This document shows, in pieces, positions 2,446 through 59,341 of a stretch of DNA of 64,000 nt (position 1 is its first letter; the number at the start of each line of letters is the position of its first letter). The notes under the pieces are model-generated. The model worked only from the letters and a program-made list of their open reading frames with translations, searched no databases and was not told the origin of the DNA. The DNA is taken from NCBI GenBank assembly GCA_039638295.1, contig JBDIWJ010000003.1, positions 16,289 to 80,288 of the forward strand. Direction: 5' to 3'. The translations under genes and the position numbers were made by a program. Source of the DNA: Candidatus Phoenicimicrobium oleiphilum. Its GTDB lineage: Bacteria > Atribacterota > Phoenicimicrobiia > Phoenicimicrobiales > Phoenicimicrobiaceae.

Positions 2446-2579
2446 TGAGTAATGAGGTGTAGGGGCACGATGCATCGTGCCCACAGGTAAAGAAAGATAA
2501 TAAAACAGGAAGGGCACAATTCATTGTGCCCTACAATATAATTCGGAAATAAAGAATTAAGCAAAAGGGAGGTTTTATT

Positions 2580-3137
2580 TTGATTTCTACTAGTGACTTC
2601 AAGAAAGGATTGACTATTGAATTTAAGGGAGAGATATATAGTATTGTTGATTTTCTCCACGTAAAACCGGGTAAGGGTGGTGCATTTGTCCGCACTAAGC
2701 TAAAAAATATTAAAACTGGTTTAGTAGTGGATAAAACTTTTAGGGCAGGAGAAAAAATGGAGCAAGCTATAATCGATCGAAAAACTATGCAGTATTTATA
2801 TAATGATGGTGAAAATTATTATTTTATGAATAAAGAGACTTATGAACAGATATCATTACCCAAAGAGCAAATAAGTGAAATAGGGGAGTTTCTCAAAGAA
2901 GGAGAAGATGTAGAAATTATATTTTGTAAGGGTGTTGTGATAAGTGTGGAATTACCCAATTTTATGAATTTGAAAGTAATTAAGACTATGCCGGGAGTAA
3001 AGGGCAATACTGTGTCAGGAGCGCTTAAACCAGCTACATTAGAAACTGGGGCAATAATTCAAGTTCCTTTATTTATAAAAGATGGTGATATAATTAAAGT
3101 AGATACCAGGGAGAAGAGGTATATAGAAAGAGTATGA
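2580..3137 (+). CDS. efp: elongation factor P
   Basis: 185 aa starting MISTSDFKKGLTIEFKGEIY...KPGKGGAFVRTKLKN. It uses a TTG start with an AAGGGAGG RBS 8 nt upstream. Confidence 0.93.
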   Translation: MISTSDFKKGLTIEFKGEIYSIVDFLHVKPGKGGAFVRTKLKNIKTGLVVDKTFRAGEKMEQAIIDRKTMQYLYNDGENYYFMNKETYEQISLPKEQISEIGEFLKEGEDVEIIFCKGVVISVELPNFMNLKVIKTMPGVKGNTVSGALKPATLETGAIIQVPLFIKDGDIIKVDTREKRYIERV

Positions 3138-3330
3138 ATTCGCATCTCGTGAATCGTATCTCTTATTTAGTTATCTGGTTAGTTGGTTACCTAGTTAGCT
3201 GGTTGAGGAATGATTATATTAAAGAATTAATATTAAACTAATTAACCAACAAACCAGTTAACTAGCTAACTAAACACTAGCGAGATACGAAATACGAACG
3301 ACTATTTATGAGAGCGGGGTGGAGCAATCA

Positions 3331-3750
3331 ATGCAAACCATTAAAACTGAACTTGGAGAAATAAATATTTCTAAAGAAACTATTGGATATATCGTTCGTT
3401 TAATTTTAGTTGATATTAAAGGTGTGGCAGGCAGTAAAAAAACGGTTATGAATGAAATAACCGATATGTTAATGGGAAACACTGATATAATTAGTGATAC
3501 TTCAAGTAATATAAAAATAGAAATAAAGGATAACAAAATTTTCATTGATTTATTTATTATAATAAAATATGGAGTAAGGATACCAGACATAGCCTGGGAT
3601 ATACAAAACAGGATCAAAGAAGAATTAATAAGAAAAATTGGTACAGATACTAGCGAGATAAATATACATATTCAAGGGATACAGTTTCCTAAAAAAGCAC
3701 AGAGTAAAAAAGAATTAGTTGCATCTGATCTATTCATACAGGTTTTCTAA
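3331..3750 (+). CDS. Asp23/Gls24 family alkaline-shock protein (YqhY-like)
   Basis: Asp23-like sequence (IGYIVRLILVDIKGVAGS). The ATG at 3331 has GGAG 6 nt upstream; the ORF track instead offers an alternative GTG at 3319. The position upstream of nusB matches Firmicutes synteny. Confidence 0.8.
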   Translation: MQTIKTELGEINISKETIGYIVRLILVDIKGVAGSKKTVMNEITDMLMGNTDIISDTSSNIKIEIKDNKIFIDLFIIIKYGVRIPDIAWDIQNRIKEELIRKIGTDTSEINIHIQGIQFPKKAQSKKELVASDLFIQVF

Positions 3751-3799
3751 AAAAACAGATTGACTCATCCTCCCTGAAGGGAGAGGGTTGGGAGGAACA

Positions 3800-4219
3800 A
3801 TGGGAGTAAGAAGATTATCTCGTGAATTGGCATTACAGGTATTATTTCAAATCGATTTAGTCAATGCCAATATGGAAGAAAGTTTAAGATATATATTTGA
3901 AAATGGTACATATTCTGAAGATATAAAAGAGTTTACTTTAAATATAGTCAGAGGAGTAATGGGTAATTTAATAGAAATAGATAAAGCAATCAAAAAATAC
4001 ACTGATAATTGGTCTCTGGAAAGAATTAATAATATAGATCGGAATATTTTACGTATAGCAATTTACGAGATATTATTTAGAGATGATATTCCCAAGAGTG
4101 TTTCTATCAATGAAGCAGTTGAGTTAGCCAAAAAATATGGTACAGAAAGTTCATTTAGTTTTGTAAATGGTGTTTTAGGTAAAATAGATAAGAAAACAAT
4201 AAAGAGCAAAGAAGAATAA
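3800..4219 (+). CDS. nusB: transcription antitermination factor NusB
   Basis: LSRELALQVLFQIDL... is a NusB hallmark. The ATG at 3800 is preceded by GGGAGGAA. The ORF-track TTG at 3788 would overlap the RBS. Confidence 0.9.
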   Translation: MGVRRLSRELALQVLFQIDLVNANMEESLRYIFENGTYSEDIKEFTLNIVRGVMGNLIEIDKAIKKYTDNWSLERINNIDRNILRIAIYEILFRDDIPKSVSINEAVELAKKYGTESSFSFVNGVLGKIDKKTIKSKEE

Positions 4220-4224
4220 ATATT

Positions 4225-5454
4225 ATGGATAATCAAAATGAAGTAAAAATATATACAGTTTCAAAAATAAATAGATATATAAAAGCCCTCTTTGAAGGTG
4301 ATTACAATCTACAGAATGTATGGATATTGGGAGAGATTTCTAATTTTAAATTACATTCTTCTGGACATATGTATTTTGTGCTTAAAGATCAGGAAAGTCA
4401 AATTAAATGTGTTATGTTTAGAGGAAATAATTTTAATTTAAGATTTATGCCTCAGGATGGTATGAAAGTAAAAGTAATGGGAGATATTCGTGTTTACGAG
4501 AGGAGAGGGGAATATCAATTATATGCGAAAATAATTGTTGAATCAGGGAAAGGCGAACTTTACTTAGCTTTTGAAAGATTAAAAGAAAAGCTTAAGGCAG
4601 AAGGTCTTTTTGCTGAGGAATATAAGAAGAAATTACCCCTCATTCCTCAAAACATTGCGGTAATAACTTCCCCTACCGGAGCGGCAATTAGAGATATTAT
4701 TACTATATCGTTAAGAAGATTCCCCAATCTTTCTATATTGGTTGTACCTTCTTTAGTTCAAGGAACATTTGCTGCCCAGGAAATTGCCCAAAAAATAGAT
4801 TTTTTAAATAAACATTTTAGTGATTTAGATTTTATTATAATTGGCCGAGGTGGTGGTTCTTTAGAAGAATTATGGGCATTTAATGAAGAAATATTAGCTC
4901 GTAGTATATATAATTCTAAGATACCAATTGTTTCCGCAGTTGGTCACGAGACAGATTTTACCATTTCAGATTTTGTTGCTGATTTACGCTCTCCAACCCC
5001 TTCCGCGGCAGCTGAAATGACTATTCCTGATAAGAATAATTTAATAAATAATATAAATTTATTAAATAGCAAATTAACTAGAGCGATGAAAAGAAATATT
5101 GAATTAAAAATAGAGAACTTAAATTCTTTGAGCAAGAGTATTCAATATTATAGTCCAGAGAATAGGGTTAACCAATATTATCAATATATTGATGAATTTA
5201 TTGGTCGAATAAATTCAAGGATAAATCATAAGTTTCAATTATGGGAAGAAAGAATTAAAAAAGACTCGCAAAGATTAGATTCTTTAAATCCCTGGGCAGT
5301 TATTGAACGAGGATATAGTATATGTAGGAAACTACCCCATTTGGAAATTATTAAAAAATTAGAGCAAGTTGAAATCGGTAACAAAATCGAAGTTATCATA
5401 AGTGATGGAAAAATATCTGGGGAAGTAAACAAAAAGGAGGCTTTGAAGAATTGA
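4225..5454 (+). CDS. xseA: exodeoxyribonuclease VII large subunit
   Basis: 409 aa with an OB-fold N-terminus and a catalytic domain. Its stop overlaps the xseB start. Confidence 0.92.
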   Translation: MDNQNEVKIYTVSKINRYIKALFEGDYNLQNVWILGEISNFKLHSSGHMYFVLKDQESQIKCVMFRGNNFNLRFMPQDGMKVKVMGDIRVYERRGEYQLYAKIIVESGKGELYLAFERLKEKLKAEGLFAEEYKKKLPLIPQNIAVITSPTGAAIRDIITISLRRFPNLSILVVPSLVQGTFAAQEIAQKIDFLNKHFSDLDFIIIGRGGGSLEELWAFNEEILARSIYNSKIPIVSAVGHETDFTISDFVADLRSPTPSAAAEMTIPDKNNLINNINLLNSKLTRAMKRNIELKIENLNSLSKSIQYYSPENRVNQYYQYIDEFIGRINSRINHKFQLWEERIKKDSQRLDSLNPWAVIERGYSICRKLPHLEIIKKLEQVEIGNKIEVIISDGKISGEVNKKEALKN

Positions 5455-5720
5455 AAACTAAGAAAAAAATAGAAGAAATTTCCTTTGAAGACTATTTAAA
5501 AAAATTAGAGAGAATTGTTCAACAATTAGAAGAAGGAGAATTGACTTTAGATGAATCTGTAAAACTATATGAAGAAGGAATGAGTATTTCGAAATTATGC
5601 TTGGAAAAATTAAATAAGGCAAAACAAAAAATAGAAAAATTGGTGATAGAAGATGGCAATAAATTTTCCATCAAACCATTTTCAATCAATAAAGGAGAAA
5701 ACAATATTAATGAATTTTGA
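5451..5720 (+). CDS. xseB: exodeoxyribonuclease VII small subunit
   Basis: 89 aa coiled-coil protein (SFEDYLKKLERIVQQLEEGELTLDESVKLYEEG). Confidence 0.9.
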   Translation: MKTKKKIEEISFEDYLKKLERIVQQLEEGELTLDESVKLYEEGMSISKLCLEKLNKAKQKIEKLVIEDGNKFSIKPFSINKGENNINEF

Positions 5721-6570
5721 TAAGTATTTAAGTGATAAAAAAAGTATTATTGATAAGGCATTAGATGACTTTTTACCATCAGAAGAGTCCCCACCCTCAA
5801 TTATTCATAAAGCTATGCGATATAGTGTTTTTAATGGGGGTAAAAGACTTAGACCAATTTTGACCCTCGCTACCGCTGAATTATTGGGTAAAGAGATAGA
5901 AATAGTATTAAATTTGGCTTGTGGAATTGAACTAATTCATACTTTTTCTTTAATTCATGATGATTTACCTTGTATAGATAATGATGATTTCAGACGAGGG
6001 AAACCCAGCAACCATAAAGTATTTGGAGAGGCTGTTGCCCTATTAGCCGGGGATGCCCTTTTAGTTTCTGGATTTGAATTTATAGTAAAAAATGCTGAAA
6101 TTAAGAATATAAGGAAACAATCTATTTTAAAAGTACTTAAAGAAATATCTTATTATATTGGAACTAAAAATATGTTAGGCGGACAAGTAGAAGATATAAG
6201 TATGGAAAATGAAAATATCAATAGAGATTATCTATACAAAATGTATTCGAAAAAAACTGCGGCTCTAATCTGTGCTTCAATTAGAGGAGGGGCAATTTTA
6301 TCTGGAGCTAATCAAAGACAACTAAAAGCTTTAACCAGATATGGAGAAAATATTGGTTTAGCCTTTCAAGTTACGGATGATATAATTGATATGATGCAAG
6401 ACCAAAGGGAAATGAAAAAACCAACTTATCCTCAAAAATATGGGATTAAAGAAGCAAAGATAGAAGTTGAAAGATTGATTAAAGAAGCAAAAAAATCTTT
6501 AAAAATATTCAATGAAAAAGCAGAAATATTAAATGCTTTAGCTGATTATATACTAGCAAGAGAAAAATAG
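5710..6570 (+). CDS. ispA: (2E,6E)-farnesyl diphosphate synthase
   Basis: Polyprenyl synthase with an FSLIHDDLP (DDxxD) first motif and a VTDDIID second motif. The start is most likely ATG 5710 (MNFDKYL). The ORF-track start at 5653 overlaps xseB. Confidence 0.88.
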   Translation: MNFDKYLSDKKSIIDKALDDFLPSEESPPSIIHKAMRYSVFNGGKRLRPILTLATAELLGKEIEIVLNLACGIELIHTFSLIHDDLPCIDNDDFRRGKPSNHKVFGEAVALLAGDALLVSGFEFIVKNAEIKNIRKQSILKVLKEISYYIGTKNMLGGQVEDISMENENINRDYLYKMYSKKTAALICASIRGGAILSGANQRQLKALTRYGENIGLAFQVTDDIIDMMQDQREMKKPTYPQKYGIKEAKIEVERLIKEAKKSLKIFNEKAEILNALADYILAREK

Positions 6571-6630
6571 TGGTTAGTGAATATTCAATAACTAATGACT
6601 ATTCACTATCGACTAAATTAAGGAGGAAAG

Positions 6631-7359
6631 ATGCTTAGATCAAATAATAGAAAGTATGATGAAATACGGTCAATTAACATTATAAGGAATTATATAAAAT
6701 ACGCAGAAGGTTCTACTTTGATGGAAATGGGAGATACTAAAATAATTTGTACTGCATCAGTAGAGGATAAAGTACCATTATTTTTAAAAGGTACAAAACA
6801 AGGGTGGATATCTGCAGAATATTCAATGATTCCTCGAGCTAATCAAATTAGAAATATAAGAGATTCAGTTAAAGGTAAAATAAATGGGCGTTCTTCTGAA
6901 ATTCAAAGATTAATAGGACGGGCTTTAAGAGCGGTAGTTAATTTAGATGCACTTGGTGAAAGAACAATATGGATAGATTGTGATGTACTACAGGCAGATG
7001 GTGGAACCAGAACTGCAGCTATTACTGGGTCATTTATTGCCCTTTGCGATGCACTAAATTATTTAAAAGCAGAGGGACAATTAAAAAATATTCCTATAAA
7101 AGAATATATAGGGGCTATTAGTGTGGGAATAGTAGACGGAGAAATGATTTTAGATTTAAACTTTGAAGAGGATTCTCACGCTCAGGTGGACTTAAATATA
7201 GCTATGACTGAAAAAGGTGAAATAGTAGAAATTCAGGGAACTGCAGAAGGAAGACCTTTTTCTAAGAGAAATTTACAAGAATTGATTAAATTGGCTGAAA
7301 TTGGAATAGAAAAAATAATTGAAAAAGAAAAAGAGATATTAGGGAATATTATATGTTAG
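6631..7359 (+). CDS. rph: ribonuclease PH
   Basis: 242 aa starting [17 protein letters not shown]...[10 protein letters not shown], typical of RNase PH. Confidence 0.93.
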
Positions 7360-7952
7360 AAATATTAGTCGCATCTAAAAATTTAGATAAAGTTAAAGAA
7401 ATCAAAGAGATGTTAAAAAATACTAATTTAAAAATATTAACTATAAAAGATTTTCCTGAGCTTCCACAAATTGAGGAAGATGGAAAAACATTTATGGAAA
7501 ATGCCTTAAAAAAGGCTTGTAAAATTTCGCAGTATACCGGTAAAATTTGTTTAGCTGATGACTCAGGCTTAGAAATAGATTATTTAAAGGGAAAACCAGG
7601 TATTTACTCCTCAAGATGGGGGAATTGTGATGCAGAACGTATCAGTAAAGTTTTAGAATTACTAAAAGATGTGCCAGAAAATAAAAGAGGTGCTAAATTT
7701 ATATGTGTCTTAGTACTTGCCTTTCCAGATGGGAGAAGATATATAGTAAATGGAGAGTGCAAGGGAAGAATTTCTGTTAATCCCAGAGGAGAATATGGTT
7801 TTGGTTATGACCCTATTTTTTTAGTTCCCGAATATAATAAAACATTTGCTGAATTAGGTGAAGAAATAAAAAATCGCATAAGTCATAGAGGAAAAGCTTT
7901 TAAAAAAATGATTAAAATAATAAATAAATTAGTCGTTAGTAATAGTCGATAG
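7353..7952 (+). CDS. rdgB: dITP/XTP pyrophosphatase (Ham1/RdgB family)
   Basis: 199 aa starting [10 protein letters not shown]... with FGYDPIF. It overlaps the rph stop. Confidence 0.9.
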
Positions 7953-8277
7953 TCGATAGTATGACCGGTGCCTTAATTGGTTTAATATACCTTTATAATA
8001 TAATGATATTATACCAGACAATTTTTTCCTGCTTAAAAATGAAAAAATATGAAATATTTGTTAAAAAATTTTATTCGAATATCGTTTTTTGTATATCTCA
8101 TATAGTAAAAATAGTAATACCGTTAGCCAGTTTGCCAGTTACCCGGTCAAAGAATTAAAATCAACTTTCTTAACTGGATAACCGGTAAACAGGGTAACTG
8201 GGTAACTAATACGCGATACGATTTACTAACGACTATTCACTATCGACTAGTTAAGAGTTTTGAATTATGGTTTTTCG
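7927..8277 (+). repeat. ~350-bp dispersed repeat, copy A, with heptamer-tiled terminal inverted repeats (MITE-like)
   Basis: About 95% identical to the reverse complement of 52254-52608. Its ends are tagtcgttagtaatagtcgatagtcgatagt and actaacgactattcactatcgactagtt. An internal ccagttaccc...gggtaactgg hairpin is present. Confidence 0.85.
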
Positions 8278-8392
8278 CTTATTCGTTTTTACGGGCACAA
8301 GTTTCGCTTTAAGTTTTTAGCTGTATATCGATAACAGAAAGTCGACAATAAAAAATTTGGTTACTCTTAACAAAAAATTGTAAAGGAAGCGA

Positions 8393-8421
8393 TTGACTTA
8401 TATTTATATTTCCTATATAAT
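8393..8421 (+). promoter_or_regulatory. consensus sigma-70 promoter of the tRNA operon
   Basis: TTGACT (8393-8398), a 17-nt spacer, then TATAAT (8416-8421). This lies 12 nt upstream of tRNA-Pro. Confidence 0.75.
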
Positions 8422-8432
8422 AACGTTTGTCT

Positions 8433-8510
<78 letters not shown>

Positions 8511-15362: not shown

Positions 15363-18035
15363 ATGAAAAAAATAAATAATAGTGACATCCAGTCAGTATA
15401 CAATCCCAGGGCAGTTGAAGAAAAATGGTATAAATTCTGGCTGGAAAAAAATTATTTTAAAGCGAAAATCCAATTTGATAAAGAAAAAAATTATTCTATA
15501 GTTATACCTCCCCCTAATGTTACTGGTTCATTACATATTGGACATGCTTTAAACAATACTCTACAAGACATTTTAGTTAGATGGAAAAGAATGGAAGGTT
15601 ACAACACTCTTTGGTTACCAGGAACTGACCATGCAGGAATTGCTACCCAAAATGTAGTGGAAAGAGAAATAGCCAAAGAGGGGAAAAACAGATATGATTT
15701 GGGAAGAGAAAAATTCCTGGAAAGGGTGTGGCAGTGGAAGGAAAAATACGGGAATAACATTATAAATCAATTGAAAAGATTGGGATTTTCTTGTGATTGG
15801 TCACGATTAAGATTTACTTTAGATGAAGGGCTTTCCAGGGCTGTTAGAAGGGTATTTGTACAGTTATATAAAGAGGGACTGATATATCGGGAAAATTATG
15901 TAATAAATTGGTGTCCCAGATGCCAGACTGCTTTAGCAGATATTGAAGTAGTTTCGGTAGAAGAAAATGCTAATCTCTATTATATAAACTATCCCATTAA
16001 AGATTCTGAAGAGGTAATTTCAGTGGCTACTGTTCGCCCTGAAACAATGCTTGGTGATACGGCAGTAGCGGTTCATCCTGATGACAAAAGATACAAAAAA
16101 TATATTGGTAAAACTGCTATATTACCTTTAGTGGGGAGAGAACTACCAATAATCGCTGATAGTTATGTTGACCCTGAATTTGGTACAGGGGCAGTAAAGA
16201 TAACTCCTGCTCATGATTTAAATGATTTTGAATTAGGCAAACGTCATAGTCTTCAAATGATCAATTTATTAAAAAATGATGGAACTATGAACGAGCAAGC
16301 AGGGAAATATAAAGGCTTGAGTGTAACAGAATGTCGAGAAAAAGTGGTAAAAGAATTGAAAGAAAAAGGATACTTAATAAAAATTGAAGATTATCAACAT
16401 TCAATAGGGCATTGTTATAGATGCGGTACCATTATCGAACCATATCTTTCTAAACAATGGTTTGTGAAGATGAAGGAACTTGCACTACCAGCAATTTCAG
16501 CGGTCGAGGAAGGTAAAATTGAATTTATACCTTCTCGCTGGGATAAGGTATATTATGAGTGGATGAAAAATATTAAAGATTGGTGTATTTCGCGCCAATT
16601 ATGGTGGGGGCACCGTATTCCAGTATGGTATTGCCAGGATTGTTTAGAATTAAATGTCGAAGAAGATGCTCCTTCATTTTGTAAAAAATGTGGCAGCTAT
16701 AATTTAGTACAAGATCCTGATGTTTTAGATACCTGGTTTAGTTCAGCTTTATGGCCTTTTTCTACTTTAGGATGGCCAGAAGTAACTGATGACTTGAAAT
16801 GTTTTTATCCAACTTCAGTTTTAGTTACCGGTTTTGATATAATATTCTTTTGGGTAGCTCGAATGATAATGATGGGGCTGAAATTTTGTGGAGACGTACC
16901 CTTTAAAAAAGTTTATATAAATCCCTTGATTAGAGATGCAGAAGGCAAAAAAATGAGTAAATCAAAGGGGAATGTTATAGATCCCTTAACGATTGTCGAA
17001 GAATATGGATCTGATGCTTTAAGAATTACACTTGCCTCACTAACTATTCAAGGAAATTATATCTGTTTATCTGAAGAAAGAATTAAAGGGTTCAGGAATT
17101 TTACTAATAAAATATGGAATGTATCAAGATTTTCAATGATGAACCTTAAGGATTTTAATATTGATAAAATAGAAAAGGATAAATTGAAAATGTCCTTAGC
17201 TGATAAATGGATAATCAGTCGGTTAAACAGGGCAATAAAGAAGACTAGTGATTATCTTAATGAGTTTAAGTTTGGAGAAGCTGCAAAAACTATTTATGAA
17301 TTTAGTTGGAATGAATTTTGTGATTGGTATATAGAATTTATTAAACCAAGATTATATCAAGAAGAAGATGAGATTGGAAAACAGACAGCTCAATATATCT
17401 TGTGGATAACTTTGGAAAATACTTTAAAACTTTTACATCCTTTTATGCCTTTTATAACTGAAGAAATTTGGCAAAAAATTCCTCACAAAGGGAAAAGTAT
17501 TATGATTTCATATTGGCCCAAATATAATATGGAATGTGTAGATAAAGATACAGAAGAAAAGATGAGTAAAATTATGGATATAATTAGAACGATTAGAAAA
17601 ATCAAATCAGATATGAATATTCCATATAGCAAAAAGATAAATTTGTATCTTAATATTGCCCAGGATAAAAATTTGTTAGAACTAATAAAGGAAAATATCT
17701 ATTATATAGAATCATTAATCAAAATAGAATCATTAAATATTGGAACAAATATTACAAAACCGCCTTACTCAGCAACTGGTGTTTTGGAAGGTGTAGAAAT
17801 ATTTATTCCTTTGAAAGATATAATTAATATTCCAGAAGAGATAAGCCGTTTAGAGAAAAGATTACTTAAGGTAAAAAATGAGTTAGATATTGTATGCAGA
17901 AAATTAACTAATCAAGATTTTTTAGCCAAAGCTCCTGATGAGGTAATTAAGAAGAAGAAAGAGAAAGCAGATGAATTGCAGGATATCAAAGAAAGATTGG
18001 AAAATCACTTAAAAACCTTAAATAGTGGCAAATAG
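15363..18035 (+). CDS. valS: valine--tRNA ligase
   Basis: 890 aa with HIGH (PNVTGSLHIGH) and KMSKS motifs and a C-terminal coiled coil. Confidence 0.96.
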   Translation: MKKINNSDIQSVYNPRAVEEKWYKFWLEKNYFKAKIQFDKEKNYSIVIPPPNVTGSLHIGHALNNTLQDILVRWKRMEGYNTLWLPGTDHAGIATQNVVEREIAKEGKNRYDLGREKFLERVWQWKEKYGNNIINQLKRLGFSCDWSRLRFTLDEGLSRAVRRVFVQLYKEGLIYRENYVINWCPRCQTALADIEVVSVEENANLYYINYPIKDSEEVISVATVRPETMLGDTAVAVHPDDKRYKKYIGKTAILPLVGRELPIIADSYVDPEFGTGAVKITPAHDLNDFELGKRHSLQMINLLKNDGTMNEQAGKYKGLSVTECREKVVKELKEKGYLIKIEDYQHSIGHCYRCGTIIEPYLSKQWFVKMKELALPAISAVEEGKIEFIPSRWDKVYYEWMKNIKDWCISRQLWWGHRIPVWYCQDCLELNVEEDAPSFCKKCGSYNLVQDPDVLDTWFSSALWPFSTLGWPEVTDDLKCFYPTSVLVTGFDIIFFWVARMIMMGLKFCGDVPFKKVYINPLIRDAEGKKMSKSKGNVIDPLTIVEEYGSDALRITLASLTIQGNYICLSEERIKGFRNFTNKIWNVSRFSMMNLKDFNIDKIEKDKLKMSLADKWIISRLNRAIKKTSDYLNEFKFGEAAKTIYEFSWNEFCDWYIEFIKPRLYQEEDEIGKQTAQYILWITLENTLKLLHPFMPFITEEIWQKIPHKGKSIMISYWPKYNMECVDKDTEEKMSKIMDIIRTIRKIKSDMNIPYSKKINLYLNIAQDKNLLELIKENIYYIESLIKIESLNIGTNITKPPYSATGVLEGVEIFIPLKDIINIPEEISRLEKRLLKVKNELDIVCRKLTNQDFLAKAPDEVIKKKKEKADELQDIKERLENHLKTLNSGK

Positions 18036-18120
18036 TCGTTAGTGAATAGTGAATAGTAAGGAAGGTAATTGAAAAGTAGAGGTGTGGTGCTTATACTAAC
18101 GACTATTCACTATTAACTAA
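18033..18120. repeat. heptamer-tiled inverted-repeat element
   Basis: The arm tagtcgttagtgaatagtgaatagta faces the arm tactaacgactattcactattaacta. The element overlaps the valS stop. Confidence 0.8.
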
Positions 18121-18142
18121 CAACTGATTTGTAGAGGTGAGT

Positions 18143-19462
18143 ATGATAACTTATGCGGAAGCATTAGGCTATATTTATAATTTAAACAAATATGGAATAA
18201 AATTAGGTCTAAATAATATATCCTATTTACTTTTTCTTTTAGGTAACCCTCATAAAAATTTAAATATAATTCATATTGGGGGAACTAATGGAAAAGGGTC
18301 AACTGCTGCAATGATAAGCTCAATACTTCAAGCTAATGGTTTCAAAACTGGTCTTTACACTTCACCTCATTTAGTAGATTTCACTGAAAGAATGAAAATA
18401 AATTCACAAAACATAAGCCAGGAAAAGGTATGTGAATTATTAGAAAGGATCAAGCCTTATATTGAGGAAGTTTCTAACACTGCAGGGTATAACCATCCCA
18501 CTTTCTTTGAAGTAATTACCGCAATGGCTTTTCTTTATTTTTATGAAGAGAAAGTAGATTTTTTAGTTTTAGAAGTTGGATTGGGTGGACGGTTAGATGC
18601 TACTAATGTTTGTCAACCACTAATATCAGTTATTACCCAGATTGATTATGACCATATGGATAAATTAGGAAATAGTTTAAAAGAAATTGCCAGAGAGAAA
18701 AGTGGAATTATTAAATCTGGAGAAATTGTAATTTCTTCATCTCAATATGATGAAGCCTATAATGAAATTAAAAAAATAACTGATGAAAGAAATTCCCCCC
18801 TTTTTAGTATAGGTAAAGAGATAAATTACCAAATAAAAAAAACTGATATTAAAGGAAGTATATTTGATTTAAAAGGAATTTACAATGAATATAAAGATTT
18901 GCACGTTTCATTAATAGGTAAACATCAGGTGGATAACGCCGCTACAGCTATTGCAGCTATTGAAGCTCTTAGAATTAAAGGATTAAGCATTCCCACAAAA
19001 GCAATAAGAGATGGTTTGGAAAAGGTAAGGTGGGAAGGAAGGCTTGAAATTATCCAATATGATCCTCTGTTAGTCTTAGATGGGGCGCATAACCCCAATG
19101 GGATCAAGATAGTTCGACAAACCTTGGAAGAGTTATTTTCTTATAATCGGCTCATTTTGGTATTAGCTATTTTCTCTGACAAAGATTATAAAAAGATGAT
19201 CCAGATTATATCACCACTTGCTGATTTAATTATTACTACTAAAGCAGAAAATCCTCGAGCAACCCCTCCTCAGGTAATTGCTAAAGAAGCAGAACAGTAT
19301 AAAAATAAAAAAAAGATAATTGTTACTGAAAATATTACCCAGGCTATAAACTGTGCTTTATCAAATTCTAAAAAGAACGATTTAATATGCATAACTGGTT
19401 CTCTATATACAGTAGGTGAAGCAAAGAGGTACTTTATATATAAAAATTTAGTTAAAATTTAA
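18143..19462 (+). CDS. folC: bifunctional folylpolyglutamate synthase / dihydrofolate synthase
   Basis: Mur ligase family with GTNGKGST P-loop. The start is ATG 18143, 5 nt after GAGGTGA; the ORF-track GTG at 18137 overlaps this RBS. Confidence 0.88.
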   Translation: MITYAEALGYIYNLNKYGIKLGLNNISYLLFLLGNPHKNLNIIHIGGTNGKGSTAAMISSILQANGFKTGLYTSPHLVDFTERMKINSQNISQEKVCELLERIKPYIEEVSNTAGYNHPTFFEVITAMAFLYFYEEKVDFLVLEVGLGGRLDATNVCQPLISVITQIDYDHMDKLGNSLKEIAREKSGIIKSGEIVISSSQYDEAYNEIKKITDERNSPLFSIGKEINYQIKKTDIKGSIFDLKGIYNEYKDLHVSLIGKHQVDNAATAIAAIEALRIKGLSIPTKAIRDGLEKVRWEGRLEIIQYDPLLVLDGAHNPNGIKIVRQTLEELFSYNRLILVLAIFSDKDYKKMIQIISPLADLIITTKAENPRATPPQVIAKEAEQYKNKKKIIVTENITQAINCALSNSKKNDLICITGSLYTVGEAKRYFIYKNLVKI

Positions 19463-19555
19463 AACTCTTAACTAGTCATTGTGTCCCTACAACTCACCTT
19501 TCGTTTTAAGCTTAAAATAATAAACGATACAAAAGAAGTAAGGAGTAAAAAGATT

Positions 19556-23903: not shown

Positions 23904-24383
23904 TTATTCACTTTTAGTTTCTGTTTTCTTCTTTACAGATTTTTTGGTTGATTTGGCTACTGTTTTTTTCGCAACTTTTGTGGTTTCTTTAGCTTTAGCT
24001 TTTTTAGTTGGTTTTGAAATCTTTTTGGCTACTGTTTTTTTTACTGTTTTTGTGGGTTCCTTTGCTATTGGTTTTTTCTCAGCTTCTGTTGTTTTTTCAA
24101 TTTCAGTCACCTGTGTAGGTTTGGTTAAAATATTTAATTTTTTTGACAATCTCGATTTTTTGCGAGAAGCAGCCCCTTTGGGCAGAATACCTTTGTCAAC
24201 AGCTTTATCCAGGCTTGAAACTGAATCTTTAAAATATTTAATAACATCGTTTTCATTTTTTTCTTCTAAGGCTAGATTGAATTTTTTTATATTTGTTTTT
24301 ATTTTGGATTTATATGTAATATTTCTTAAATGACTTTTTTCAGCAGTTTTTACTCTTTTTATTGCAGATTTTATTCTGGGCAT
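23904..24383 (-). CDS. rpsT: 30S ribosomal protein S20 with Lys/Ala-rich C-terminal extension
   Basis: The N-terminal ~85 aa (MPRIKSAIKRVKTAEKSHLRN...) is canonical S20. It is followed by a ~70-aa KKTVAKK-rich tail. Confidence 0.88.
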   Translation of the reverse strand: MPRIKSAIKRVKTAEKSHLRNITYKSKIKTNIKKFNLALEEKNENDVIKYFKDSVSSLDKAVDKGILPKGAASRKKSRLSKKLNILTKPTQVTEIEKTTEAEKKPIAKEPTKTVKKTVAKKISKPTKKAKAKETTKVAKKTVAKSTKKSVKKKTETKSE

Positions 24384-29039: not shown

Positions 29040-29218
29040 TTAGATTAGTATCTCGTATCCCCGTTTTCACGGCGATAAGTCTCGTGAAGAAAATTAGAAA
29101 TTAAACGTAGGGGCACAATGTATCGCGCCCTCAAAAGCTGTATCCTTGTCCAACTAACGACTATATTATTTAGCAAATTGGTGAATAGGTGAATAGAAAA
29201 TTTATTTTCTTGAAACAT

Positions 29219-29259: not shown

Positions 29260-29286
29260 TTAGCACTCTCAAGGGGAGAGTGCTAA
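29260..29286 (+). promoter_or_regulatory. CIRCE operator (HrcA binding site)
   Basis: Perfect TTAGCACTC-N9-GAGTGCTAA inverted repeat. Confidence 0.9.
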
Positions 29287-32964: not shown

Positions 32965-33014
32965 AAGGGCATCAGAATTTCAAAAATTCCGATGCCCTTA
33001 ATGAATATTTTTTT
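32965..33014 (+). terminator. intrinsic terminator after dnaK
   Basis: Long hairpin aagggcatcagaattt-caaa-aaattccgatgccctt, followed by a T7 run. Confidence 0.7.
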
Positions 33015-33125
33015 AAAAAACAATATATTCTAACAAGATTGTCAGAAAAGTTTTATATAAAATCGAAATGAAGTAAAAAGGAGATAGAGGGGTTTCAGGG
33101 GAGTTTTCTCCCCTGGCAATCTTGT
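33008..33125 (+). ncRNA. duplicated structured element (copy 1), candidate small RNA or protein-binding hairpin
   Basis: The 63-nt segment aaaaaacaatatattctaacaagattgtcagaaaagttttatataaaatcgaaatg is near-identical to 41177-41239. The caagattgtcag...ctggcaatcttg 12-bp stem encloses the palindrome TTTTATATAAAA and a ggggag-tttt-ctcccc hairpin. Confidence 0.45.
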
Positions 33126-33164
33126 CGTTAGTATTACGTAAATAAGATTAAGATTCAGGGATAG

Positions 33165-33222
33165 GGGCACGATGCATCGTGCTCAAATCAAGAAAGAATT
33201 GCGGGTCGGATAAATCCGACCC
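33165..33222. repeat. GC-rich palindrome pair upstream of dnaJ
   Basis: gggcacgatgcatcgtgctc (33165-33184) and gggtcggataaatccgaccc (33203-33222). The same two families occur at 2463-2482 and 23828-23847. Confidence 0.75.
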
Positions 33223-33354
33223 CTTGTACACTAAAGGTATTTTACTAGTCATACTATACACTATACTTGTACTATAACAATATCTATATACGAAATTGGT
33301 ATTAGATATTTGTTTTTTTGATAATTAAAATAACATTAGAGAGGAAATTGTTAA

Positions 33355-40810: not shown

Positions 40811-41173
40811 ATGGTTGCTTCGCACACTAAAAGATCTGAACAATTAGAAAAATATCTTAAAAAAATAATCAATAATATTCTTTATAGAAAAATAAATGAT
40901 CCAAGAATTAGTTTTGTTACTATAACAAGAGTGTCTGCCTCCGCAGATTTAAAATACGCCAAGATATATATCAGTATTTATGGTGATGAAAATCACAATA
41001 TAAATTGTTTAAAAGCGCTAAGAAATGCTACAAAATTTATAAGAGGAGAAATCGGAAGAGAATCAAAAATTAGATTTGTACCAGAAATTAAGTTTCTAAT
41101 CGATGAAGACATAGAATATCAATACAAATTGTTGGAGTATCGGAATTTCAAAAATTCCGATACTCCAAAATGA
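40811..41173 (+). CDS. rbfA: ribosome-binding factor A
   Basis: 120 aa with the RbfA KH-like domain (RISFVTITRVSASADLKYAKIYISIYG). Confidence 0.9.
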   Translation: MVASHTKRSEQLEKYLKKIINNILYRKINDPRISFVTITRVSASADLKYAKIYISIYGDENHNINCLKALRNATKFIRGEIGRESKIRFVPEIKFLIDEDIEYQYKLLEYRNFKNSDTPK

Positions 41174-41176
41174 ATG

Positions 41177-41259
41177 CTTTTTAAAAAACAATATATTCTA
41201 ACAAGATTGTCAGAAAAAGTTTTATATAAAAGCGAAATGTCACTCCCCTGACAATCTTG
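41177..41259 (+). ncRNA. duplicated structured element (copy 2)
   Basis: Near-identical to 33008-33070, with a closing stem caagattgtcag...ctgacaatcttg. It lies directly after the rbfA stop. Confidence 0.45.
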
Positions 41260-52234: not shown

Positions 52235-52253
52235 ATTAAAAACTTAAAACTAC

Positions 52254-52608
52254 AAGCGAAAAACCATAATTCAAAACTCTTAACTAGTCGATAGTGAATA
52301 GTCGTTAGTAAATCGTATCGCGTATTAGTTACCCAGTTACCCTATTTACCGGTTATCCAGTTAAGAAAGTTGATTTTAATTCTTTGACTGGGTAACTGGC
52401 AAACTGGCTAACGGTATTACCATTTTTACTATATGCGATATACAAAAAACGATATTCGAATAAAATTTTTTAACAAATATTTCATATTTTTTCATTTTTA
52501 AGCAGGAAAAAAATTGTCTGGTATAGTATTATTATATTATAAGGGTATATTAAACCAATTGAGGTATCTGTCATACTAACGACTATCGACTATTCACTAA
52601 CGACTAAT
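52254..52608 (-). repeat. ~350-bp dispersed repeat, copy B (inverted relative to copy A)
   Basis: The reverse complement aligns end to end with 7927-8277, with about 15 mismatches or indels. Confidence 0.85.
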
Positions 52609-52700
52609 AAAAGGAGGTGATAAATGAATTATTTCTGAAGTGAAATTTAAACGATGTTAATATTTTCATTATTTTCTAATAAAGAAAGGAGATTTTAGTA

Positions 52701-59018: not shown

Positions 59019-59181
59019 TTTTCCAAAAGGTAAATAATGATTTGTATATCAGGTAGCGTTTAGCATATAGAGAATACAGTAATTAGTAATGTGTAATAAG
59101 TAATAAGTAGAGATAAAGTATAGTAAAATAGCGAAAAACGAAAAACCATAATTTAAAATTCAAAACTTTTTGTACTTTTCT

Positions 59182-59264
59182 GTCATTGCGAGCGACCACA
59201 GGGAGCGTGGCAATCTCTTTATGATATTGAGATTGCTTCGTCGCTGAAGCTCCTCGCAATGACA
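59182..59264. repeat. inverted pair of 35-nt cattgcgag units
   Basis: gtcattgcgagcgaccacagggagcgtggcaatctc at 59182-59217. Its inverted partner (reverse complement gtcattgcgaggagcttcagcgacgaagcaatctc) is at 59229-59264. The two are separated by tttatgatatt. Confidence 0.85.
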
Positions 59265-59341
59265 AGAATGTATTATTTTTTTAAAGAAATTCTTATACAT
59301 TTAAATTAGAAATAAAACAATAGGGAGTTAATTATAAAAAT

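Follow-up and report, generated by a model that had tools for sequence, protein, structure and literature searches.

A 350-bp inverted repeat pair in an oil-reservoir Atribacterota genome: probable duplication of a composite intergenic spacer built from heptamer-phased modules

The repeat pair and its setting

We investigated a pair of ~350-bp inverted repeats that lie 44 kb apart in a 64,000-nt stretch (the window) of contig JBDIWJ010000003.1, assembly GCA_039638295.1, filed under Candidatus Phoenicimicrobium oleiphilum. Copy A is located between rdgB and an operon of seven transfer RNA (tRNA) genes, with rph also beside it, and copy B between ftsK and an operon encoding a Bmp-family lipoprotein and an ABC transporter, with bacA also nearby. 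We consider it probable (about 0.6) that the pair arose by duplication of one composite intergenic spacer and is neither a self-contained mobile element nor a gene. Exact-protein look-ups retrieved window-matching contigs from oil-reservoir and subsurface metagenomes, including contigs of 91.7 kb and 144 kb. The nearest genomes were Atribacterota metagenome-assembled genomes (MAGs), with RNase PH 83-87% identical, and the host is a JS1-like Atribacterota bacterium of oil reservoirs. All 55 open reading frames (ORFs) of at least 110 aa that are not nested in a longer plus-strand ORF lie on the plus strand, with a possible exception in an overlapping ORF pair at 23.9-24.4 kb, and the GC skew is positive window-wide (+0.12 to +0.26). 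The window is thus a single leading-strand block that contains neither an origin nor a terminus.

When copy A was aligned end to end with the reverse complement of copy B, 340 of 355 columns were identical (95.8%), the remainder being 12 substitutions and three single-base indels. This bears out a preliminary description of the same DNA, which had reported a ~350-bp inverted pair 44 kb apart at about 95% identity. The differences are clustered leftward, with 11 of the 15 at 7929-8022 and 4 at 8023-8280, and a repeat finder returned the arm 8022-8280 as 98% complementary to copy B. Because each copy is bridged with its unique flanks in several independent metagenome assemblies, an assembly artefact is ruled out as the source of the pair.

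The 350-bp unit is a mosaic of heptamer-phased modules and one promoter-like block (Table 1). Heptamer arrays had been described at both termini; the left array is indeed terminal and its inverted partner is present, but the right array is subterminal and a tail of the repeat extends beyond it. When joined, these two TAGT-type arrays can pair with a predicted energy of -26.7 kcal/mol. The inner hairpin that had been noticed in the element is present in both copies, and its perfect stem in copy A consists of CCAGTTACCC (8135-8144) and GGGTAACTGG (8192-8201). Arrays resembling this hairpin, with different loops and sequences, were found at L182, L168, L151, and L204 (L numbers denote the loci used for comparison). 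To the right, both copies run into a T-rich heptad module. The promoter-like block of copy B, judged by its sequence, is likely a candidate promoter of the bmp nucleoside-transporter operon.

We also examined the coding capacity of the unit. A 65-codon ORF occupies 7961-8158 of copy A and, as the preliminary description had it, is not intact in copy B, where a 1-nt indel in a T run disrupts it. No other ORF of at least 40 aa is common to A and B. A protein-coding reading was rejected on these grounds. The exact product of the 65-codon ORF occurs in no recorded assembly.

Downstream of copy B, the bmp leader (52611-52700) carries a Shine-Dalgarno sequence and a small upstream ORF (uORF) that is cut to MNYF-stop in the window. 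Its counterpart in two relatives (L147, ~1165-1286; L170, ~2815-2931) specifies a 12-aa peptide (MNYFSGHINPIK / MNYLSNRIHPIK), and a hairpin, CCCTATTAAAT...ATTTAACAGGG, lies 3' of it. This uORF may be a leader-peptide or attenuator element.

Table 1. Coordinates of the two copies, their component modules, and related modules elsewhere in the window
Feature	Position	Strand	Remarks
Copy A	7929..8280	+	352 nt; rdgB-to-tRNA-operon spacer; presumed derived copy
Copy B	52254..52608	-	355 nt; bulk of ftsK-to-bmp spacer; presumed native copy
Outer TAGTNNN heptamer array, copy A	7929..7962	+	Contributes the last 5 codons and stop of rdgB
Inverted (ACTA-type) partner array, copy A	8222..8250	+	Subterminal; 31-nt tail (8250-8280) still within the repeat
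Outer heptamer array, copy B	52575..52607	+	In bmp leader, just 5' of Shine-Dalgarno and 4-codon uORF (52611-52638)
Inner hairpin, copy A	8120..8207	+	Inverted CCAGTTA / TAACTGG-type heptamer arrays
Inner hairpin, copy B	52327..52414 (limits approximate)	-	Perfect stem, 52333-52342 with 52390-52399
Promoter-like block, copy A	8008..8036	-	TTAAGC (8031-8036), spacer, extended -10 TGGTATAAT (8008-8016); points toward rdgB, antisense
Promoter-like block, copy B	52498..52527	+	TTAAGC, 18 nt, TGG-TATAGT; extended -10 type; faces bmp operon
T-rich heptad module, site A	8250..8337	+	8250-8280 common to B; 8281-8304, 24-nt nested insert; 8305-8337, A-specific rest
T-rich heptad module, site B	52235..52284	-	Directly 3' of ftsK stop; 52254-52284 common to A
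Second inverted TAGTNNN array pair	18030..18129	+	Intergenic, ~35-nt loop; same shell as the 350-bp unit, large interior absent
Solo 17-nt fragment GACTAGTTAAGAGTTTT of the array/tail-module junction	19461..19477	-	Exact; 0.01 expected by chance
Solo T-rich module	59132..59166	-	In ~115-nt composite 59061-59175; 59139-59161 match with 2 mismatches, 0.00 expected by chance

Comparative anatomy, recombination, and origin of the two copies

We compared both sites with their counterparts in relatives. Two loci of related species, L147 and L170, are orthologs of the ftsK-bmp region. L147 retains a T-rich module right after the ftsK stop (71/84 over the stop-proximal region, with a nearly identical core), and both loci retain a ~60-nt block, ATATTTTTTnATTTTTAAGCAGGAAAAA...GGT.T.GTATTATTATATT..AAGG, 5' of a conserved leader (AAGGAGGTGATAAATGAATTAT...) and bmp, while the spacer interior between these anchors differs in all three species. 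Both the ftsK-side tail (in L147) and the promoter-like block (in L147 as well as L170) thus persist at this site in related species, and on this basis copy B appears to be native. At the other site, the closest relative, L010, has an rdgB-tRNA spacer of 65 nt with no arrays and with the tRNA promoter straight after rdgB, and the corresponding spacers of L195, L012, and L041 hold other, unrelated arrays. Copy A is therefore regarded as secondary, its site being empty in L010. None of the relatives compared carries the bmp promoter block at site A, which suggests that the block in copy A is a transplanted bmp promoter-like block running antisense into rdgB.

The boundaries of the shared sequence were also informative. 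Rightward, the homology between A and B ends at ...GGTTTTTCGCTT, inside the T-rich module, after which each site follows its own diverged version of that module: site A continues with the 24-nt insert (8281-8304), which is like one in L167, and then CGCTTTAAGTTTTTAGCTGTATA, and site B continues with GTAGTTTTAAGTTTTTAATTTAT. On the left, the homology ends with the TAGT array that supplies the rdgB stop; TTAGTCGTTAATGAATAGT-like arrays occur at the same rdgB codon in L011 and L012. There was no target-site duplication at either copy (A is flanked by ...AATAAA and ATTCGT..., B by ...CTTTTA and GTAGTT...). The right breakpoint within a shared module, the left array in relatives, and the lack of a target-site duplication together favor homology-primed copying over transposition.

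The search for further copies and target-site duplications that the preliminary description had proposed thus yielded neither, across ~79 kb of host sequence and the module-bearing loci listed. No third copy lies in the host sequence, which extends ~15 kb beyond the window, and none of the listed loci, at least 120 in number, contains a full-length copy; the matches there are partial and at the level of modules. A 22-mer from the core, GGGTAACTGGGTAACTAATACG, had 0 matches in GTDB representative genomes and 0 in viral contigs, and the T-rich tail motif likewise had 0 matches in viral contigs, so there is no link to phage. The region had been expected to be a local segmental duplication if further copies and a transcript were both lacking, and this comes closest to the outcome, but the building blocks belong to a genuine repeat family.

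That family bears on another possibility, in which a miniature inverted-repeat transposable element (MITE)-like or composite unit, running from the TAGT array to the T-rich module, was mobilized in trans and took the promoter block from B to A. The left terminus TTAGTCGTTAGTGAATAGT and the right module of the unit are the same as those of a dispersed 150-165-nt family whose sharp left end meets unrelated flanks in at least nine loci, related species carry modules in spacers that are not orthologous, with the modules better conserved than the genes, and site A is empty in L010. However, mobilization would not account well for the missing target-site duplication, for a right inverted array that stops 31 nt from the end, or for homology that ceases inside a module which continues, diverged, at both sites. 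The sequence surveyed yielded only two copies, B retains its ancestral surroundings and has locus-ancestral sequence in its interior, and the paired modules of L106, L132, and L127 enclose housekeeping genes and no transposase. Nor did we find an empty site for every insertion: A is empty in L010, but at B the ftsK-side tail is orthologous sequence in L147 and the promoter-like block in both L147 and L170. The MITE suggested by the preliminary description is thus not upheld, and mobilization of this kind seems unlikely to us.

Metagenomic variants provided a view of how the two copies interact. The site-A copy of sample 3300006094 (L002/L229) carries the B base at each of the four single-nucleotide polymorphisms (SNPs) of the right half (8098, 8113, 8145, and 8190) with normal flanks on both sides, and the site-B copy of the same sample, L231, scores 96.1% against window copy A, as L210 also does. 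The presence of all four B alleles in a site-A copy points to gene conversion and indicates that A and B still convert each other.

A 44-kb inversion mediated by the pair had also been suggested. Contig L005 (OilBA1, 4.6 kb) matches window 5437-8280 over its positions 1-2844 and window 52608-50499 over 2492-4599, and thereby joins rdgB via the repeat to ftsK in reverse complement, which is exactly the junction that such an inversion predicts. The inversion is so far unconfirmed, being seen in one contig. The reciprocal junction (bmp in reverse complement, repeat, tRNA) did not turn up in the contigs that encode Bmp, trigger factor, ClpP, or FtsK, a set in which OilBA1 is represented solely by the short contig L001, which stops outside the repeat. 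The standard gene order was found in at least three independent long contigs, and many short-read contigs break within the repeat, for example at window 8051. L005 is either a rare variant or an assembly chimera. The even GC skew and the shared orientation of the genes argue for a long-established standard order and for a cost of inverting it.

The L005 junction could further be taken as a sign of a programmed invertible segment, with the repeats serving as recombination sites of a regulated 44-kb switch. We regard this as very improbable. By their Pfam labels, the genes beside the copies (rph, rdgB, and the tRNA operon at A; bacA, ftsK, and bmp at B) include no recombinase or invertase. Inversion would move ~40 genes to the lagging strand, whereas the plus-strand ORFs and the GC skew reflect a long-standing order, the same order that the independent long contigs retain. 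Furthermore, a crossover in the 98%-identical right part would keep each promoter block with the same outer gene, so that nothing would be switched.

We also considered that the unit could be a two-copy gene for a structured noncoding RNA. On each strand, the complete unit gave a more stable fold than its shuffled controls (z = -5.3 and -4.4), and two SNPs in the inner hairpin preserve pairing on the plus strand of A (G-U to A-U, and G-C to G-U). A compensatory change between these two SNPs was considered and rejected because they lie in different pairs. Against an RNA gene, Rfam returned only tRNAs in the window at the gathering threshold, and only miRNA-like chance matches, far below gathering, in 7850-8440 at E<=10. 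The unit contains neither a terminator-like site nor a promoter directed at its structured part. Good folding follows from the inverted layout of the heptamer arrays itself, and homologous arrays elsewhere differ in loops and sequences; moreover, the population variant L005 mixes the two hairpin SNPs, and the comparison comprises only two copies with 15 differing positions. The RNA gene entertained in the preliminary description accordingly finds little room here, and we give it a very low probability.

Taken together, these data lead us to prefer duplication of a spacer. The ancestral ftsK-bmp spacer would have comprised a T-rich module, an outer TAGT pair, an inner CCAGTTA pair, and the bmp promoter-like block, and the interior of B would later have been copied, inverted, into the rdgB-tRNA spacer. 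The latter would beforehand have held a T-rich module as well as a TAGT array where rdgB ends. The modules common to both spacers could then have supplied the homology for a non-reciprocal recombination, by gene conversion or template switching, a step that we infer. The pair would now act as ordinary dispersed homology, with mutual conversion between the copies and with a crossover inverting the 44 kb. As a unit, the 350-bp repeat is probably without a function of its own. The earlier interpretation of the unit, as a MITE, an RNA gene, or a mediator of inversion, is partly supported, namely in its structural details, in the dispersed module families, and in the L005 junction.

Several points weigh against the duplication account. 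We infer the direction and mechanism of copying from comparative anatomy, and composite-transposon-like mobilization between two terminal modules would yield a similar product. The modules are clearly dispersed, as seen in the 150-165-nt family with its unrelated flanks and in a composite at 59 kb that recurs in L138. The copy count covers ~79 kb of host sequence, and the metagenome contigs listed do not include the host's own. The promoter-like block was unflagged by a promoter scan because of its weak -35; its designation as a promoter comes from sequence conservation and the extended -10 match. Finally, the inversion is represented by one 4.6-kb contig of an older assembly, in which a chimera at the repeat is possible.

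Heptamer phasing and the T-rich module family

We next consider the intergenic DNA from which the unit is built. The pattern (TAGTNNN)x2+TAGT occurred 22 times against 0.49 expected. Self-match at lag 7 was 0.360 in intergenic DNA, compared with ~0.29-0.31 at neighboring lags and 0.287 in coding DNA; intergenic self-match was 0.336 at lag 14, and the lag-7 value was still 0.356 when A and B were left out. In a period-7 scan, many gene boundaries carried arrays, their unit types being TAGTNNN, TAATNAG, TATCGAG-like, TACGNNA, and others, and, low-complexity A-rich runs aside, the period-7 runs lie in spacers or at or near gene ends. Within one array the units differ (TAGTCGT, TAGTGAA, TAGTCGA...), with no exact unit repetition. 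The sub-modules that had been reported to recur alone near 59143 and 19463 were both recovered, and a second inverted array pair was found (Table 1). Heptamer arrays are thus a property of the genome and are not specific to the 350-bp unit.

Several arrays start at, or a few bases from, a stop codon. The 3' ends of rdgB are a case in point (window 7926-7952; L010 3240-3257; L011, L012, and L041): the C-terminal residues and the stop vary among relatives, because different heptamer arrays start within the last codons and provide the stop.

To survey the T-rich module, we scanned Joint Genome Institute (JGI) metagenome contigs with GARTTTTRAATTATGGTTTTTCG, and at least 120 contigs matched (loci L090-L209). 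The consensus, ~50 nt in heptad phase, reads GTTTTGA RTTTTRA ATTATGG TTTTTCG CTTTTMG YTTTAAG TTTTTAG, and extension of the scan instances gave AAAAAGTTTT-GAGTTTTGAATTATGGTTTTTCG-CTTTTCGCTTTAAGTTTTTAGCT. The module is a fixed, non-repetitive sequence and not a simple tandem repeat. Among the matches listed, 133/134 modules lie outside long ORFs. The module occurs in either orientation, the T-rich strand being the sense strand in 61 cases versus 30, and 74 of 126 modules are preceded by an A-rich mirror arm, with which a long A:U hairpin forms in single-sequence folds. RNAalifold on 56 instances of the A-rich/T-rich hairpin gave only 7 pairs and 0 compensatory changes; with no covariation in the alignment, the hairpin is a property of the single-sequence folds.

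The 150-165-nt subfamily begins with TTAGTCGTTAGTGAATAGTAT, which is the left end of the 350-bp unit, and has a sharp left boundary with wholly unrelated flanks. Ten of the listed module loci are orthologous to parts of the window, and their spacers hold other combinations of modules. The composite at 59061-59175, a TAATNNG array followed by a T-rich module, is identical to L138 (~4445-4570) at 112 of 115 positions plus one 7-nt indel; the L138 spacer is non-orthologous to that of the window, and the flanking genes are only ~80% identical. Taken at face value, this similarity implies either recent spread or strong constraint. Among 80 RNase-PH loci from many phyla (747 kb), the T-rich module was found solely in an Atribacteria MAG. 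These modules are a dispersed, fast-reshuffled repeat family, apparently mobile, and unusually conserved in the one case that was measured.

Smaller repeats accompany the modules. The 24-nt insert at site A, ATTCGTTTTTACGGGCACAAGTTT (8281-8304), resembles ACCCGCTTTTGCGGGCACAAGTTT (reverse complement of L167, ~829-852), which occupies the same position of a T-rich module in an unrelated locus; it has the appearance of a small insertion nested in the module. A GC-rich palindromic repeat (CTGTCATTGCGAGCG...GCAATCTC / GAGATTGCTTCGTCGC...CGCAATGACAAG) is located at 59180-59270 and recurs in many related contigs, L095, L151, L172, and L195 among them, beside heptad modules. Small GC-rich hairpin repeats (GTAGGGGCACGATGCATCGTGC..., CGGGTCGGATAAATCCGACCCC...) were seen at 29107-29135 and 33160-33225 and at many other loci (L138, L142, L170), scattered in spacers and often nested amid arrays. 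An 84-nt direct repeat (32971-33054 and 41139-41222, 83% identical) lies 3' of two different genes; in it, a terminator-like hairpin precedes a conserved AACAAGATTGTCAG box.

Three further observations concern the gene setting. A CIRCE-type inverted repeat, TTAGCACTC-N9-GAGTGCTA, is present at 29260-29285, just 5' of a gene starting at 29280. Within the ORF region 23904-24383 (either strand), repeats spaced 12-36 nt occur at 23916-24113, and these repeats suggest a low-complexity, lysine-rich repeat protein. A 54-kb contig from this organism (L231) carries, close to its end (16421-16870), an ORF of 149 aa with an rve_3 integrase domain; the ORF lies ~6 kb past the right end of the window and is the sole transposase-like gene seen near it.

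Relation to known repeats and significance

Heptanucleotide tandem repeats have been described as cyanobacterial short tandemly repeated repetitive (STRR) sequences and among long simple sequence repeats (LSSRs; Mrazek et al. 2007, as far as cited in PMC4679880), and TAACTGA repeats occur in marine Beggiatoaceae, Cyanobacteria, and Bacteroidetes (MacGregor 2015, PMC4679880). The arrays studied here share with all of these a 7-nt unit, a strongly intergenic location, abundance, and a patchy phylogenetic distribution. Their TAACTGG / GGTAACT type resembles TAACTGA, and, as with the TAACTGA repeats, some arrays stand directly 5' of starts; that of copy B precedes a Shine-Dalgarno sequence. They differ in that the units are degenerate, the arrays form inverted hairpin pairs, many start at stop codons, and some heptad stretches are fixed 50-nt sequences conserved across species, in a host that belongs to the Atribacterota. 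The literature searched yielded no report linking Atribacterota with heptamer or tandem intergenic repeats, and no account of the module family.

In Nostoc, small dispersed repeats and mini-elements are reportedly nested in heptamer arrays and in each other. The mosaic intergenic regions described here are similar, the 24-nt insert (8281-8304) and its L167 counterpart being examples, but the sequences are unrelated and the phylum is different. We know of no mobilizing function for either the Nostoc nested repeats or the modules reported here.

A second comparison is with REP/BIME/REPIN elements (REPINs are described in PMC3116915) and with the MITE-like intergenic repeats Correia/NEMIS, ERIC, BOX, and RUP. 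As a group, these are likewise short extragenic hairpin repeats that often lie just 3' of genes, occur in either orientation and in many copies, and can serve as substrates for recombination and rearrangement. The modules here differ in having no single palindromic consensus, and heptad phasing is not known to be a trait of those families. No RAYT (IS200/IS605-like Y1) transposase was evident in the window's ORF list, whose proteins were not scanned against domain libraries.

With regard to recombination, the pair resembles ribosomal RNA (rRNA) operons or insertion sequence (IS) copies that undergo inversion and conversion: there are two inverted tracts of ~350 bp, mosaic alleles, and a recombinant junction contig. 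Unlike those cases, the repeat would be a duplicated spacer, and the inversion would be asymmetric about origin and terminus. On the duplication account, the pair is ordinary in kind, a two-copy inverted spacer duplication that is active as recombination homology. What is unusual is the module vocabulary, which adds a new form to the heptamer repeats and miniature elements already described in other phyla.

It is conceivable, though on balance doubtful, that the heptad modules, with the T-rich module and the TAGT-array-bounded 150-165-nt hairpin element among them, are undescribed, Atribacterota-specific miniature intergenic elements that are spread or kept by dedicated machinery, such as a binding protein or a Y1-type transposase, and that act as transcript punctuation. 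Just as tentatively, the same idea would cast them as bidirectional A-arm/U-arm hairpins at operon boundaries, some with promoters, and the 350-bp pair as modules that mobilized or converted the DNA between them.

The pair calls for caution in the assembly and binning of subsurface genomes, as many public contigs break inside the repeat and one may be chimeric or truly inverted. The 44 kb between the copies hold housekeeping genes, including tRNAs, tig, clpPX, lon, the dnaK region, and ftsK. Of wider value than the pair itself is that the intergenic DNA of this lineage is written in 7-nt phase and draws on a limited set of modules, conserved and reshuffled. Such organization has been known chiefly from cyanobacteria and giant sulfur bacteria; the present case adds a deeply branching phylum with hardly any cultured members, and it offers motifs that are candidate terminators, promoters, protein-binding sequences, or mobile sequences.

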